Sequence record: OL631478.1
Strand: one strand, 5' to 3'
Length of the DNA stretch: 64,000 nt
From: Escherichia phage ECML-1
Positions 16,983-56,147 of the stretch are shown piece by piece (positions within the stretch are counted from its first letter, which is position 1; each line of letters begins with the position of its first letter). Both the position numbers and the translations under genes were made by a program. Below the pieces are notes generated by a model. The model saw only the letters and a list, made by a program, of their open reading frames with translations, did no database searches and was not told where the DNA came from.

Positions 16983-17246
16983 TTGAGAGAGAATAAAATG
17001 TTTAACAAAAGCAAAGCTGTGAGTCATGTAGCAAAAGTTGACAGCAAGATTGAAGAACTTGAGCGCATCCTTGCAAATGCTAGAGAGTCAATAATCAAAG
17101 AAGTTGAAGCTGTTGAATCTCAAATGCAGCACCTAATGCTTAAACGTCAAGAGCTACGTGAGCATCTAGAATATATTGAAACACGAGAGCTAAAAGTTAA
17201 CAGATATTTTAAGGAGTCCGAATGTTTAACTCAAGAGAATCAGTAA
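16983..17246 (+). CDS. hypothetical coiled-coil protein
   Basis: 87 aa ORF. Confidence 0.4.
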   Translation: MRENKMFNKSKAVSHVAKVDSKIEELERILANARESIIKEVEAVESQMQHLMLKRQELREHLEYIETRELKVNRYFKESECLTQENQ

Positions 17247-17977
17247 AAAACTGGAACCTTCGTTGTGGAAACACTCAAAAGCAACCTTACAGTAATGAGT
17301 ATTGGGAATCTTTAAAATCTCAATCTCTGTGTATGCTTGAAGAAGCAAAAGAGCTTGTAAAAGCAATTGAAGAGAAAGACCCCATTGAGACACTGGATGC
17401 TCAGGCAGATTTACAATATGTTCTTGACGGTTTGATTTACCTGTCACAACATGACCATAACGGTGCTATGGAAGCTGTTTGCCATAATAATGACCTGAAG
17501 TACACAGATGACTATGAAGAAGCTTTAAAACGTCTTGCAGACATTGAAAAGCGTACTGGTCAAGAGTGTATTATTCGAATGTCAGTGGTTGATGGTAAAG
17601 AGTGGTATGCGATTGTCCGTGCAGCCGATGGGAAGATTATGAAGCAATCAAATCTCCCTAAAGTACAGCTTGGTGAATACATTGTAGAGCTTGAAAGCCA
17701 AGAACTTTTTGTGGTAGTATCTGAGACATGCGTTATCTGCAAAGGTATTGTAGGTAGCTTAAAGGATTTGGGTGTAGATGGTTTTGTAGAAGTTAATCCA
17801 ATTACCTCTAAAGCAGATAAAGACTTCTGTAAAGAGAATGGACTATGGATTGCAGATATTGTCTACTATGATGGTGAGCAGTTCCATGTAACCTCATACC
17901 CGAAACTGAATTATGATGCTAATAACCTGAAGTGCTGGTTAAAAGGGGTTGGTTATAATGGATTCACAGAACATTAA
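17222..17977 (+). CDS. putative MazG-like nucleotide pyrophosphohydrolase
   Basis: N-terminal EEAKELVKAIEEKDPIETLDAQADLQYVLDGL has a MazG-like acidic pattern; low certainty. Confidence 0.35.
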   Translation: MFNSRESVKNWNLRCGNTQKQPYSNEYWESLKSQSLCMLEEAKELVKAIEEKDPIETLDAQADLQYVLDGLIYLSQHDHNGAMEAVCHNNDLKYTDDYEEALKRLADIEKRTGQECIIRMSVVDGKEWYAIVRAADGKIMKQSNLPKVQLGEYIVELESQELFVVVSETCVICKGIVGSLKDLGVDGFVEVNPITSKADKDFCKENGLWIADIVYYDGEQFHVTSYPKLNYDANNLKCWLKGVGYNGFTEH

Positions 17978-46008: not shown

Positions 46009-46257
46009 ATGTCAACTATCCGCGTAACTGTTAATGCTTATGGCTGCCACGAACTTGATGCAAAATTCGATATCGGTGGAACAAATAACACCTTTGACCT
46101 TATCAAAATGCTGATTCAGCAGGTGCTACCAGATTATAACCCTACCGATGACTTTTGGAAGGACGCTGTAAAAGAAGCCATAAACGAGGAATATCACTAC
46201 CACTACTGGGGAGAAAAAATTGTCTCCCTGTACTACAACAAGCAAGATTATAACTAA
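46009..46257 (+). CDS. hypothetical small protein
   Basis: 82 aa ORF; last gene of the rightward array. Confidence 0.5.
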   Translation: MSTIRVTVNAYGCHELDAKFDIGGTNNTFDLIKMLIQQVLPDYNPTDDFWKDAVKEAINEEYHYHYWGEKIVSLYYNKQDYN

Positions 46258-46319
46258 TCGACGCAGCGGGGCTAAATAGCCCCAGATACCTGAAAAGCTC
46301 CTTCTCATAGGGGCTTTTT

Positions 46320-47860
46320 TACGTCTATGTAATAGCCTCTATACAACCCTTTCCCTTTCCTTTCCAGAATCTATCCCAGACCTTAAAAGCAATAACTCTA
46401 TAGTCTACTCTATAACCTCTTATCAAATCAACTTAAATAAAAGCCAATAACCCCAGAAAGGGGATGGCCCATTTAAACGCTCTATAAAGCTCTATAACAG
46501 CCTTATCAACCTAACTTAAGGGATTGCATTACCTCACCCTTAAAAGCCCTTTATAAAGCTTCCCAGAGACTTAAAAGAATCTTATAAGGGTGTAAGCTTT
46601 ATCATCTCGTTAGTATTCTTGTGAATATCTAAAAAGGGCTTGTTAGTGTCTTAAAAGTATGTTATAGGGGCTATAAAGTTACTTTGAAGTTACGTAAAAG
46701 TTACGTAAATGCTAGCCCCCTTAACATTTTCTTAACAATTTCTTAACAAACCCTACATAGTTATGCTTTTAAGGCACTTGTTAGCAACTTGTTAGCCCCT
46801 TGTTAAATCTCTGTTAAGACCACGTAAAAACCTTGTAAGAGTCTTTGACATAGCCTTTAAAGCCCCTGTAAAGCCTTATAAAGAGGTATCTGTACAGTTG
46901 GGGTGTAATTACTAGGAAGAGGCTTAAAAGAGCTTACAAGGAGCTATAGAGAGCTTTTAAAAGGTATGTTTAGAGAATCACTAAGAGGGAAAGGGAACGA
47001 TAAGAAAAGAGTAGTGACCATGTTAATAGCTTGTTAAAAAGATTAAACACTTGTTAGGAACTTGTTAATTATCTTAACAAAATAACTCTTAAAAATTAAC
47101 TTGTTAGCTCTTGTTAGTCATCTGTTAAGACTCTGTAAAGACCATGTATTGACTGTTAAGAACTTGTTACAGCCTTGTTAGTTATGTTAAGAATCTGTTA
47201 AGACCTCTGAAGAGATGTTAAGAGCTTGAGAGAGTTGTTAAGAGATTGTTAAGGATATTTTAAAATTTTGCAAAGTACTTGTAAGGGAGTTGTTAAGGGC
47301 TACCAAGTAGATATACATCTCCTACAGATATTTTTCAGTTCCTTCAAAGACCCTAAAAAATGACTTGATAGTCCTATTTTATAAAAATTTTAAAAATCTG
47401 AATAATTACCTATACAGTCTTTCTAAAATACAGGTAATAACAGGCTTATAAGATACCTTGTTAGTACCGTGTTAGACCTTGTGAGATAAGGTCTGTGAAG
47501 ACATTCCTGTTAAGTTTGTTAAAACAGTCTATATAGAGGCTTAGTAATACCTAGTGAACACCTATAGAGAGTATCATAGCTGACATAGAGATTAAGAGGT
47601 GTATAGGAGCTTCTAAGAGGATGTAGAAAGATGGTTAAGGTGATTGTATAGGTTGTTAAGAAGGCTTGTTAGAAGAGTGTTTAGATGGCTATTTAGAAGG
47701 GCTATACAGAGGGCTATTAAGACCACTAGATAGTTACTAAGATACTATATAGTACTATATAACTATATAGAGAGTAAGATTAAGAAGGTTGTTAAGAAGG
47801 ATAGATATTTTATTCACATATGATGGTGACCCAGAGGTTGGGACAACCGATAAAATTTTA
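46320..47860. repeat. ORF-free 1.5 kb region with a dense array of short TGTTA(A/G)G-type iterons
   Basis: No ORF of 60 aa or more on any frame; more than 30 occurrences of cttgttag/ctgttaag/ttgttaag-like motifs between about 46700 and 47700; plus actatatag direct repeats at 47740-47770. Confidence 0.6.
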
Positions 47861-47867
47861 TAAAAAT

Positions 47868-47893
47868 TAAAAAGCCCCCAATTAAGGAGGCTC
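47868..47893 (-). terminator. intrinsic terminator (minus strand)
   Basis: Reverse complement reads agcctcc-ttaatt-gggggct followed by ttttt; same hairpin family as the plus-strand terminator at 10595. Confidence 0.6.
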
Positions 47894-47903
47894 TTAAGAT
47901 ATT

Positions 47904-48497
47904 TTAAATCAGTGTTTCCAGAACTGTCTTCAGTGAAGACTTGGTTGTCTGATAAAAATGAGTAAATCCATTGTTGTTATCGAATATCTGCATCATGATA
48001 TCATCTCCCTTAATTGGGTACACTCGGATATCATAGTGAAACCCATTAAAGACACAAGAACCACTACAGAATGCTCTAAAGTCATCCACTGAGATGTACT
48101 CTTCATGACCTGTGATTTTTATACAAACACCTTTACTTGGTCTCTTAGGATTGATATCTTCCATCACAGACATATTCTGTCCACCAAGAGATACCATAGT
48201 GACCACTTTACGGTTCTTCTGTTTAAAGTACATCTTAACTTTCTGCAAAGTGTCTTCATAGAACGGATAAGACCTTTCTACAAAGATTCCTTCAAGTGGT
48301 TCTTTACCATTTTCAACTTCTCTGTTATGCCGTACTGCAAAGATGATTTGTTCGAACCAGTCAAAATTTTCTTCGGAGAGTGCTCCACGAATATCATTCC
48401 AGTCAAGGACTAGGTAGTTACCTTCAACTTCTTTTAAGTTATCTTTTTCCATAGCTATCACACCATTATCGTAAAACTTGGTAAGCTGGAACTGCAA
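47904..48497 (-). CDS. hypothetical protein
   Basis: 197 aa ORF; first gene of the leftward block. Confidence 0.5.
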   Translation of the reverse strand: MQFQLTKFYDNGVIAMEKDNLKEVEGNYLVLDWNDIRGALSEENFDWFEQIIFAVRHNREVENGKEPLEGIFVERSYPFYEDTLQKVKMYFKQKNRKVVTMVSLGGQNMSVMEDINPKRPSKGVCIKITGHEEYISVDDFRAFCSGSCVFNGFHYDIRVYPIKGDDIMMQIFDNNNGFTHFYQTTKSSLKTVLETLI

Positions 48498-52552: not shown

Positions 52553-53017
52553 TTACTTTGGATATACACTGTCAAGATAAATGTCAGCTTCCATTCTACG
52601 TCTGTTTTTCAGACCGTTTGAGGTGACCTTCTTACCTTTGACTGTAACCTTGTTCCACCACTGCATAGCTTCTGCGCAACCTACCTTATTACCAGCATTG
52701 TGGCGCTTGATAAATGTAGAATCCTGCATAGCTGTGATGCCGATGTTGTATGTTTCACTTACAAGTGCATCAAACTCGTTCTGAGAAGTTGGAACCTTGA
52801 TAGCTTTGTTCACTGCTGTAACAAACTTTTCAACATCTGCGAGAAGATAATGTTCAGCTTGTTCAGCAGTAATTATCATACCCATCTTAACAGGTTTTCC
52901 GTCAATACGGATTGTACCATACCCGATTGTAGGGATTCCGGCAGAGTCTTCGTAAGCCTCTAACTTCAGACCTTCAAAGAACTTAATAGCTTCTAAACCT
53001 TTTCTTGAGAGTTGCAT
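52553..53017 (-). CDS. endolysin, phage lysozyme (GH24-like)
   Basis: FEGLKLEAYEDSAGIPTIGYG matches the catalytic-Glu region of phage lysozymes; 154 aa. Confidence 0.75.
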   Translation of the reverse strand: MQLSRKGLEAIKFFEGLKLEAYEDSAGIPTIGYGTIRIDGKPVKMGMIITAEQAEHYLLADVEKFVTAVNKAIKVPTSQNEFDALVSETYNIGITAMQDSTFIKRHNAGNKVGCAEAMQWWNKVTVKGKKVTSNGLKNRRRMEADIYLDSVYPK

Positions 53018-54150
53018 TATGCCTCCCCTGCTGGGTTAACTGTAACTGTTGCCGCATTAGATGTTACAGAGCCACCTGCGCCAGTCACTACACAGGTGTA
53101 GCTTCCTGCATCAGCAGCGGTTGCACCTTCTTTGGTGTAAGTTGCAGCAGTTGCGTCTGGGATGACTTCCTCACCTTTCTTCCACTGATAACCTGTCGCA
53201 CCTGTTGCCACAACATTCAGTGTTAAGGTCTCACCTTCAGTGATTTCTTGATTGGTTGGTTGCTGAGTGATTACCGGAAGTGCATTCACAGTAACTGTTG
53301 CAGGGCTAGAAGTAACAGAACCACCTGCACCTGTTACAACGCAAGTGTATGAACCTGCATCTGCTGGCAGAGCACCAGACTTGCTATAGGTAGCATTTGT
53401 CGCTGAAGGAATGTCAGAGCCATCTTTCTTCCACTGGTAACCCGTTGCACCCGTTGCAGTCACTTCCAAGCTGATGTTTCCACCCTCATTGATGGTCTGG
53501 CTAGAAGGTTGTTGTGTAATCACAGGTAGTGCGTTCACAGTCACTGTTGCTGCATCTGAGGTAACACTTGTTCCACCCTCTCCAGATACAACACAAGTGT
53601 ATGAACCAGCGTCAGAAGGTGCTACTGACTGTTTTGTGTAAGTTGCAGAATTGGCACTAGGGATGTCCTCACCATCCTTTTTCCATTGATATCCAGTGGC
53701 ATTAGTTGCAATAACGCTTAGGGTAAGTGTACCCCCTTCATTTACTGTTTGATTGGTTGGTTGCTGAGTGATTGATGGTGGCTTGATAGCATCCTTCAAC
53801 TTAGCATTCAACATTGAGAAAGGTTTAACTCTTGCCAGCCATTCACAATAAACTGTATCAACGTCTTTACCATTGATAATTGCATATTGTAAGTCCATGA
53901 AGAAGTCAGACGTTCTCATTTGAGCACCAACGCTGTAAAGCAACTCATCACTAAATGGAACTTTGTAGTCTGGTTTGTAGTCAAACTTCTTAACTTCTGC
54001 AATATCAGCTTCAGGCCAATACGAACTATAGGTAAGTGGTAAAATAGCCTCTTGATATGTTCTAAAATCATATCTCTTACCAGCCTTTACGTTTGCAACG
54101 AAGCCCTTCACAAACTCTTTGAAGTCTGGGTAAGTCTTTGCTTTAATCAT
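53017..54150 (-). CDS. protein with three tandem Ig-like repeats (possible Hoc-like decoration or adhesin protein)
   Basis: Three ~85 aa repeats each with GATGYQWKKDG...AGSYTCVV...TVTVNALPVITQQP; N-terminal domain paralogous to the product of 54147..54518. Confidence 0.55.
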   Translation of the reverse strand: MIKAKTYPDFKEFVKGFVANVKAGKRYDFRTYQEAILPLTYSSYWPEADIAEVKKFDYKPDYKVPFSDELLYSVGAQMRTSDFFMDLQYAIINGKDVDTVYCEWLARVKPFSMLNAKLKDAIKPPSITQQPTNQTVNEGGTLTLSVIATNATGYQWKKDGEDIPSANSATYTKQSVAPSDAGSYTCVVSGEGGTSVTSDAATVTVNALPVITQQPSSQTINEGGNISLEVTATGATGYQWKKDGSDIPSATNATYSKSGALPADAGSYTCVVTGAGGSVTSSPATVTVNALPVITQQPTNQEITEGETLTLNVVATGATGYQWKKGEEVIPDATAATYTKEGATAADAGSYTCVVTGAGGSVTSNAATVTVNPAGEA

Positions 54151-55775: not shown

Positions 55776-56147
55776 ATGAAAAACAGAACAAACAAAGGCC
55801 AGTTTAAAAAAGGCCAGTCTGGAAACCCATCTGGAAGACCAAAAGGCTCTCGTAACAAAAGCTCACTTGTAAAAGCTCAACTGACCATTGATAATTCTGC
55901 TGAGTTTGCTGCAAAGTTGTTTGAGGCGGTTGTTACAAGGGATGCTGCTAAGCTTGCAGAGTTCGGTTTGACGACTGACGATGTAAACCTGAAGTCGATG
56001 ATGGAGGCTGGTAAAACCATCATGACTCACTCAGCAGGTGAGATGAAAGCGATTGCAGCAGACACTAAGAAGACCCCTGATAATGGTGGTCAGTCTCAGA
56101 CAGATAACAAACCAACGTTCTCTGCTGTAGCGACTCTCAAAAAATAA
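55776..56147 (+). CDS. hypothetical protein
   Basis: 123 aa; N-terminal KGQSGNPSGRPKGSRNK basic motif. Confidence 0.5.
   Translation: MKNRTNKGQFKKGQSGNPSGRPKGSRNKSSLVKAQLTIDNSAEFAAKLFEAVVTRDAAKLAEFGLTTDDVNLKSMMEAGKTIMTHSAGEMKAIAADTKKTPDNGGQSQTDNKPTFSAVATLKK

Follow-up and report, generated by a model that had tools for sequence, protein, structure and literature searches.

A helically phased iteron array at the probable genome terminus of the Felix O1-like Escherichia phage ECML-1

An ORF-free junction and its probable direct terminal repeat

Escherichia phage ECML-1 (sequence record OL631478.1) is a Felixounavirus, a Felix O1-like myophage. In the 64,000-nucleotide stretch analyzed here (the window), two gene blocks converge on a gap that lacks sizable open reading frames (ORFs), is packed with TGTTAAG-type iterons, and almost certainly contains the direct terminal repeat (DTR) and terminus of the phage chromosome. 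The ORF-free span runs from 46258 to 47903, about 1.6 kb, and is thus wider than the interval from 46320 to 47860 for which the initial annotation had claimed that no ORF reaches 60 amino acids. Within that interval the longest ORF on either strand indeed encodes 37 amino acids (ORFs of 31 to 37 amino acids only). A plus-strand gene ends at 46257 and a minus-strand gene ends at 47904; these gene ends, together with a terminator on each side, bear out the convergence of rightward and leftward blocks that had been proposed. The rightward block is closed by a Rho-independent terminator at 46296 to 46320 (plus strand), with a visible hairpin and T-run and a homologous site annotated in AYO145A. 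A second perfect hairpin, GGGGCTaaatAGCCCC, is visible in the sequence at about 46268 to 46283. The Rho-independent terminator of the leftward block, found in the window and also annotated in AYO145A, lies at 47870 to 47895 (minus strand). Between the two terminators stand, from left to right, right-end unique noncoding DNA (46321 to 46714), which in the virion would lie just inside the right DTR copy, one copy of the DTR (46715 to 47304), and left-end unique noncoding DNA (47305 to 47869). Transcription of both gene blocks runs toward the genome ends and halts at the terminators, so promoters are not expected within the region; accordingly, it shows no excess of sigma-70 promoters (9 found versus 7.4 expected).

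The assignment of the DTR comes from related phages. By megablast, the region is present in 255 phage records, nearly all from Felixounavirus and its relatives, the best match being KhF2 (96%). In Pr103Blw (MW481326), a 581-bp "short direct terminal repeat" with identical copies is annotated at both ends, and it corresponds to window positions 46715 to 47304. Phage D4, from an independent laboratory, has an exact 581-bp repeat at its ends with the same boundaries. PhageTerm was applied to Pr103Blw by its authors (PMC8303462) and was also used for D4 (PMC11737134). The records of Pr103Blw, D4, and SeKF_63 begin exactly at the base homologous to 46715, and those of GE_vB_7A and ECOH1 begin within 6 nucleotides of it. 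For UAB_Phi87, fixed ends and a 608-bp DTR were established by Bal31 digestion and run-off sequencing (PMC4837284); the segment of this phage that is homologous to the DTR measures 614 bp, with 90% identity. The TerL tree of the same study reports a "Felixounalikevirus DTR group" (PMC4837284). In ECML-1, the gene for the large terminase (TerL) starts just past the window end, as judged from the D4 map.

Transferred to the window, these data define a 590-bp DTR, present as a single collapsed copy, that begins with GCCCCCTTAACA at 46715 and ends with GTTAAGGGCTACC at 47304. By homology, it would be a short exact DTR of the T7 type with fixed, nonpermuted ends. Among the candidates of the initial annotation, the packaging or terminal-repeat boundary was therefore the right one. 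The DTR of this genus has been described before, so a gap of this kind is nothing unusual in a phage with such repeats. Felix O1 and its relatives are widely used in Salmonella and E. coli typing, diagnostics, and biocontrol, and many deposited genomes were opened arbitrarily, omit the DTR, or carry spurious ORFs here. Recognizing 46715 to 47304 as the terminal repeat provides correct ends for annotation, synthetic rebooting, and engineering. Given that the longest ORF of the window in this region has 37 amino acids, the "hypothetical proteins" annotated over it in LMP25, LMP33, LMP34, JH2, ULIM9, UAB_Phi87, H12, and others are probably spurious. The "DTRs" of KMM2 (OP902295, 64 bp) and PC79-13 (OR687644, 127 bp) fall inside the array and were rejected as assembly overlaps rather than true terminal repeats; KMM2 was termed "complete" on the strength of its 64-bp overlap. 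A Felix O1-type DTR region (89% identity) is also found at 135884 to 136463 of GU169904, "Staphylococcus phage SA1", probably a chimeric or contaminated assembly.

A phased and conserved repeat array

The initial annotation had counted more than 30 short TGTTA-type motifs. On both strands together, TGTTA occurs 35 times, versus 5.6 ± 2.3 expected from 1,000 dinucleotide-preserving shuffles of the region itself, which served as the null for the motif counts. Counts of the other motifs were likewise far above the shuffle expectation: 17 versus 0.84 for TGTTARG, 9 versus 0.11 for CTTGTTAG, and 3 versus 0.1 for CTATATAG. In the remaining 62 kb of the window, these motifs are not enriched and occur at the background rate only, which argues against a general promoter element. 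A self-trained position weight matrix (PWM; consensus gcYTGTTAAGa) recovers about 70 units in the region, and Tandem Repeats Finder (TRF) reports about a dozen arrays of 10 to 12 bp. The whole 1.6 kb is in fact periodic, a property that the first reading had missed: the base autocorrelation reaches z = 10 at lag 11, with harmonics at 21 to 22 and 32. The top five 400-bp tiles of the window by periodicity all lie inside the region, and a comparable 10- to 11-bp periodicity was found nowhere else in the window.

The units are organized in distinct blocks. Left of the DTR (46321 to 46714), near-palindromic CTTWWAAG/CTATAAAG units recur at a spacing of 10 to 11 bp (periodicity z = 3.4 to 4.1 at lags 10 to 11; 13 occurrences of the CTWWWAAG class versus 1.9 expected), and a plus-strand tandem array detected by TRF, (AAAGTTACGTA) x3.2 at 46675 to 46709, ends 5 bp before the left cut site. 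Three inverted TGTTAAG units (46720 to 46748, minus strand, read as TTAACA on the plus strand), 11 bp apart, start 5 nucleotides inside the left end. This inverted triplet is the left arm of a 29-nucleotide inverted repeat within the DTR; it pairs at 24 of 29 positions with the right arm, TTGTTAAGAGATTGTTAAGGATATTTTAA (47235 to 47263, plus strand), with a score of 38, whereas shuffles reached 24 at most. Another, less perfect pair of inverted segments, formed by 46666 to 46700 with 46766 to 46800, flanks the left cut site. The main forward array of cYTGTTAAGa units occupies 46776 to 47298 and comprises 25 TGTWA cores, all on the plus strand. Outside the DTR, in the left-end unique DNA, an AT-rich stretch (47330 to 47450) holds no exact TGTTA-core units on the plus strand, only weak PWM matches; it is 83 to 92% conserved, and the strongest local bend predicted anywhere in the region falls within it, at about 47353. 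A forward TGTTAG/TGTTAAG cluster follows at 47456 to 47530 (plus strand), and another plus-strand cluster lies at 47650 to 47800, where units of 12 to 13 bp (GGYTGTTAAGAA ... GGGCTATTAAGA; 47650 to 47725, plus strand) give TRF periods of 12 and 24 and z = 5.0 at lag 12. The "actatatag" repeats noticed earlier near 47740 are real: TRF finds (TACTATATAG) x3 at 47743 to 47770 (plus strand), 95 to 96% conserved.

The main array keeps a helical register. Neighboring units are mostly 11 bp apart, and occasional steps of 9, 10, or 20 bp preserve the register over about 550 bp. In a Rayleigh phase test, the best period was 10.40 bp (R = 0.74, versus a null 99th percentile of 0.59 after the period scan), and the spectral peak lies at 10.35 bp (power of 9.4 versus a control-tile maximum of 5.4). 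The same register (10.35 to 10.45 bp, R = 0.68 to 0.86) was recovered in 12 of 12 relatives, with DTR lengths of 559 to 613 bp. Since this register is the helical repeat of B-DNA, the cores are expected on one face of the helix.

Conservation was assessed in an alignment of 12 phages of the genera Felixounavirus, Mooglevirus, and Suspvirus. The mean column identity of the region is 83%, whereas a neighboring 197-amino-acid protein is only about 50 to 56% identical to its Mooglevirus and Suspvirus homologs, indicating that the noncoding DNA is under stronger constraint than its neighbors. Left of the DTR, at 46321 to 46714, most 20-bp blocks are 74 to 97% conserved. TGTTA core columns are conserved at 0.91 to 0.94, versus 0.77 to 0.85 for the flanks, with some ascertainment bias in these figures, as the units were picked in the window sequence. 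Indel lengths cluster at 10 to 13 bp (15 events) and 22 to 25 bp (13 events), which suggests that whole units are gained and lost.

Both DTR boundaries stand out in this alignment as near-identical islands, ...GTTACGTAAAtGCTA followed by GCCCCCTTAACATTTTCTTAACAA... on the left and ...TGTTAAGGGCTACC followed by AAGCAGATATACATCC... on the right. The words that meet at each cut, GCTA with GCCCCCTTAACA and GGGCTACC with AAGYAGATATAC, are kept over the three genera, and GTTACGTAAAtGCTA abuts the left cut site in all 12 relatives. Directly outside the right DTR boundary, at 47305 to 47316 (plus strand), the conserved word is AAGYAGATATAC; it reads AAGCAGATATAC in the other aligned phages (11 of 11) and AAGTAGATATAC in the window, with one C-to-T change.

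The organization extends further than nucleotide similarity does. Although the DNA of Erwinia phage phiEa21-4 (Kolesnikvirus) gave no match to the region in nucleotide searches, this phage has the same ORF-free convergent gap, with 11 copies of TGTTAAG, 8 of TTAACA, an 11-bp periodicity of z = 8.4, and an exact AAGCAGATATAC at the matching site; the left half of its gap is built on another unit, CTTCTAAR. Furthermore, a Kolesnikvirus-like genome in IMG/VR carries an exact 444-bp terminal repeat (TTAGCCACTTTTACA...GCGGCCACT, followed by AAGTAGATATAC) that corresponds to positions 17025 to 17468 of Ea21-4. This repeat shares with Felixounavirus the right-boundary word, located directly 3' of it. 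Judged from these alignments and motif counts, the architecture is a trait of the whole subfamily Ounavirinae. A cut-site word common to the two boundaries, either direct GCTA(G)CC or inverted TAGCCC..TTAACA, can be drawn, but any such word is tentative, as the registers differ between Felixounavirus and Kolesnikvirus.

The open-access literature yielded no account of these iterons: the motif strings led to nothing phage-related, the Bas63 papers make no mention of them, and the repeats listed in the Felix O1 genome paper are different ones (PMC3185647). The extent of the array, its phasing with the helix, and its conservation throughout the subfamily, along with the inverted units at the DTR ends and the boundary words, appear to be undescribed.

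Arrays of TGTTAAG at 11-bp spacing also occur in about 30 unrelated viral contigs of IMG/VR (array loci L026, L027, L035-L037, L039, L044, L048-L050, L056-L063, L065, L066, L071, and L072), some as perfect ACTTGTTAAGA tandems. One 81-kb contig holds four separate TGTTAAG arrays, and in one family, which occupies an intergenic gap of 1 kb, the core is conserved while the spacers vary (CCAATGTTAAGCCAATGTTAAGAAATTGTTAAGTAATTGTTAAG). Either coincidence, given how many 11-bp tandem repeats exist, or a common binding site could account for these cases. At locus L064 (IMGVR_UViG_3300025011_001073), a 4-unit TGTTAAG array accompanies homologs of the NAMPT protein of the window (38% identity) and of the 293-amino-acid protein upstream of it (29% identity); beyond these two, no other similarity to the window was found.

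A proposed packaging scaffold, its candidate reader, and other explanations

We lean, with modest preference, toward an overall explanation in which the region is a concatemer-junction terminus whose iterons serve as a scaffold for packaging. That the array itself is a protein-binding packaging platform seems to us an evenly balanced proposition, in which the binding is what we infer. The three candidates of the initial annotation fared differently: the terminal-repeat boundary holds, an array bound by a DNA-binding protein is plausible and is our preferred reading of the iterons, and a replication origin has no specific support. The window would represent the concatemer-junction form of the chromosome, with virion ends at 46715 and 47304, as supported through the relatives by homology. 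The short exact DTR would be duplicated during packaging, as happens in T7-type packaging. Acting in cis, the iterons would recruit a protein whose copies bind cooperatively on one face of the helix; the resulting complex would mark the junction for the terminase, which would cut at both conserved boundaries. Among possible readers, the best candidate would be a cryptic small terminase (TerS), the DUF5681 protein encoded at 55776 to 56147: at each helical turn of DNA wrapped on an oligomer, its AT-hook-like GRPKGS arm may enter the minor groove at a TTAA core. Such an oligomer, with its arms placed at one-turn intervals along the minor groove, would be consistent with the phasing. As a more speculative extension, DUF5681 proteins might constitute a new class of TerS in Felix O1-like phages, for years regarded as having no small terminase, and might read tens of TTAA iterons on one helical face as a wrapped multi-ring complex over the whole DTR, thereby setting both the cut and the duplication.

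The candidate emerged from a Pfam scan of 88 window ORFs, which returned one HTH_3 regulator (1480 to 1809) and one DUF5681 protein of 123 amino acids (55776 to 56147, plus strand; E = 7e-14). As for binders encoded next to the region, the ten adjoining genes have no significant Pfam match, and PHROGs places each of them in a family without a known function. Neither in Ea21-4 nor in the window does a gene located directly upstream of TerL carry a TerS annotation, and the Felix O1 genome paper reported a TerL only (PMC3185647). By their gene order, distant DUF5681 homologs appear to occupy the small-terminase position: in two contigs, P0041 lies immediately before a Terminase_6N/Terminase_3 gene and overlaps it, P0053 sits between a ParB-methylase gene and a 470-amino-acid ORF, which it precedes, and P0040 (38% identical, on a marine contig) is the first gene of the same operon, 2 to 2.5 kb upstream of TerL. 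In the window, the DUF5681 gene heads a rightward block that continues with a Ro-like gene, a tRNA island, and HNH genes and then reaches TerL. Homing-endonuclease-like genes of the HNH, AP2, and GIY-YIG types lie in and around the tRNA island (59438 to 59836, 60429 to 60881, and others), and they may explain the separation of the candidate TerS from TerL.

The N-terminal arm of DUF5681 is invariant (FKKGQSGNPsGRPKGSrN), and gp42 of Ea21-4 carries it almost unchanged, in parallel with the conservation of the TTAA-containing iteron core. The AlphaFold2 model predicts a disordered basic arm and a helical core. Part of the arm (PsGRPKGSrNk) aligns with the AT-hook PRGRPKGSKNK of HMGA1 (PDB 2EZD/2EZE). 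Short A/T runs, such as TTAA, are bound by AT-hooks in the minor groove; binding by the arm is putative. Altogether, we regard the DUF5681 protein as a possible, still tentative, reader of the array; its candidacy as a small terminase appears to be undescribed. In the unrelated IMG/VR contigs, the DUF5681 motif was not seen with the TGTTAAG arrays in the flanks that were fetched.

Several observations weigh against the packaging scaffold or its candidate reader. In size, the array far exceeds the pac and cosB sites described so far, and in T7 the genome ends proved nonessential at most insertion sites (bioRxiv 10.1101/2024.10.10.617714). The ends of the window's DTR are placed through homology alone (90 to 96% identity), the ascertainment bias mentioned above affects the comparison of cores with flanks, and phasing of the Ea21-4 array at 10.4 bp is not significant (best period 11.45 bp, with R = 0.68 below the null 99th percentile). 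Regarding the reader, its gene lies about 8 kb from TerL here, with the Ro-like gene, the tRNA island, and HNH genes in between. A profile of the family against the PDB matched HMGA1 only, over the short arm part and without significance (E = 0.19), and the first residue of the arm core is S, N, or A rather than the canonical Arg of R-G-R-P. The AlphaFold2 model is of moderate confidence (predicted local distance difference test score of 67), and Foldseek searches of this model against the PDB gave no match at E ≤ 0.001 and no solved TerS fold.

An appreciable minority share of our belief goes to the array being bound by another protein with an end-specific role distinct from terminase recognition, such as a histone-like or end-protecting protein coating the first or last DNA in the manner of p6 at the phi29 genome ends, a factor controlling DNA ejection, or a conserved host nucleoid protein. 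Phased, conserved sites fit this alternative equally well, and the array runs about 500 bp past the DTR on the left-end side, which is more than cutting needs. The hosts (Escherichia/Salmonella and Erwinia) are, moreover, all Enterobacterales, so a conserved host factor is conceivable. However, IHF and Fis consensus sites are absent from the region, none of the ten adjacent genes yields a candidate protein, and the sites bracket both cut sites exactly. We consider it improbable that the region is an iteron-type replication origin, with the repeats as initiator-binding sites and the AT-rich 40-bp stretch at 47370 to 47410 as the unwinding element. The tandem iterons and the AT-rich stretch speak for an origin, but the physical ends and the DTR map here and already account for the noncoding gap, and no Rep-like or initiator gene was found among the ten flanking genes by Pfam and PHROGs. 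A single DnaA-box match at 47810 (0.15 expected) also speaks for an origin, but scans of the region for DnaA, IHF, Fis, and Chi sites revealed nothing meaningful. The cumulative GC skew does peak near 48 kb, and to that extent the inflection sought by the initial annotation is present; the turn coincides, however, with the switch in gene orientation and with a strand-asymmetric repeat unit, and the skew turns at 9 kb, 47 kb, and 55 kb track gene orientation alike and so carry no information on where replication begins. Lambda and plasmid origins hold a handful of iterons, versus about 70 units over 1.6 kb here. With no adjacent initiator gene, one DnaA box, and no IHF or Fis consensus, the proposal of a replication origin with iterons thus finds no specific support.

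Slightly more doubtful still is the idea that the repeats have no sequence-specific reader and are either structural, providing curvature or flexibility of use to the DNA segment packaged first or last, or a by-product of slippage and recombination in noncoding DNA. Indels do occur in whole units, and helical phasing could sum small bends. Nevertheless, the mean curvature of the region in the Bolshoy-Trifonov wedge model is 10.6 degrees, versus 9.9 for the window as a whole, and the most curved tiles all lie elsewhere; intrinsic curvature was set aside as an explanation on this basis, although the test is weak. Neutral slippage, for its part, does not predict a core that is better conserved than the spacers and that persists in Ea21-4 despite the lack of a nucleotide match. 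The least probable reading, to which we give very little credence, is that the region encodes a noncoding RNA. It is long, conserved, and ORF-free, with a fold z-score of -2.2, but the opposite strand gives -2.2 too, as inverted repeats acting at the DNA level would; single-strand folds of the DTR pair its two ends. The terminators on either side point into the region, promoters are not in excess, as noted above, variation proceeds by 11-bp units rather than by compensatory changes, and Rfam gave no match, only a sub-threshold Phe-leader over a terminator.

If the packaging scaffold is correct, the array and its candidate reader bear on how DNA is recognized for packaging in the absence of a recognized small terminase. 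Two further features of the window lie apart from the array. GATC is absent from positions 1 to 64000 (0, versus 187 ± 10 in shuffled sequence and 225 expected from a Markov model), as are CTGCAG (20.6 expected), ATGCAT (14.5), CCATGG (9.9), and GGTACC (8.2), which is strong avoidance of restriction or Dam sites. At 53017 to 54150 (minus strand), a 377-amino-acid protein with three immunoglobulin-like domains (Ig_3, Ig_2, and I-set) is encoded, annotated in relatives as "tail protein".

Comparison with known systems

The closest layout is that of the T7 concatemer junction, which likewise combines a short exact DTR with flanking noncoding DNA that repeats a 7-bp core at a spacing of about one turn. 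In the T7 genome (NC_001604), CCTAAAG occurs eight times in positions 161 to 400 and three times inside the 160-bp repeat, with a period of 13 (z = 9.4). The flanking short-repeat arrays were reportedly named SRL and SRR by Dunn and Studier, and we know of no explanation for their function. The T7 unit resembles the window units CCTTTAAAG, CTGTAAAG, and CTATAAAG. The region may thus be likened to a T7-type terminus with short-repeat arrays, as an analogy of layout rather than homology: the two share no sequence homology, and T7 is a 40-kb podovirus that has an RNA polymerase of its own, as opposed to a myovirus with a genome of 88 kb. The T7 period of 12 to 13 bp is not locked to the helical repeat, whereas the array described here holds a 10.4-bp register over about 550 bp, fills the DTR itself, and is 3 to 5 times larger. 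The array and its candidate reader also bear on the role of short-repeat arrays beside terminal repeats, as in T7.

Other systems place short repeats near a site of action in comparable ways. The R-sites of lambda cosB, the pacL and pacR boxes of SPP1, and the P1 pac hexamers are short repeats that lie by a terminase cut site at whole-turn spacing, where an oligomeric DNA-binding subunit recognizes them and bends or wraps the DNA. These sites comprise 3 to 7 repeats in 100 to 300 bp and have a known TerS, as opposed to tens of units in 1.6 kb and a candidate TerS here. In phi29, periodic signals near both ends of the linear genome nucleate a DNA-wrapping multimer of p6; this protein, however, reads a 24-bp bendability pattern rather than a 7-bp word, and phi29 relies on protein-primed replication and has no DTR. 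The type II plasmid centromere parC of R1 consists of tandem 11-bp iterons on which ParR forms a cooperative helical or ring complex. Unlike the array, parC has ten iterons, flanks a promoter, and serves segregation, and ParM/ParR genes were not seen here. Lambda cosB, SPP1 pac, phi29 p6, and R1 parC are therefore best viewed as functional resemblances, not as classes to which the array would belong.

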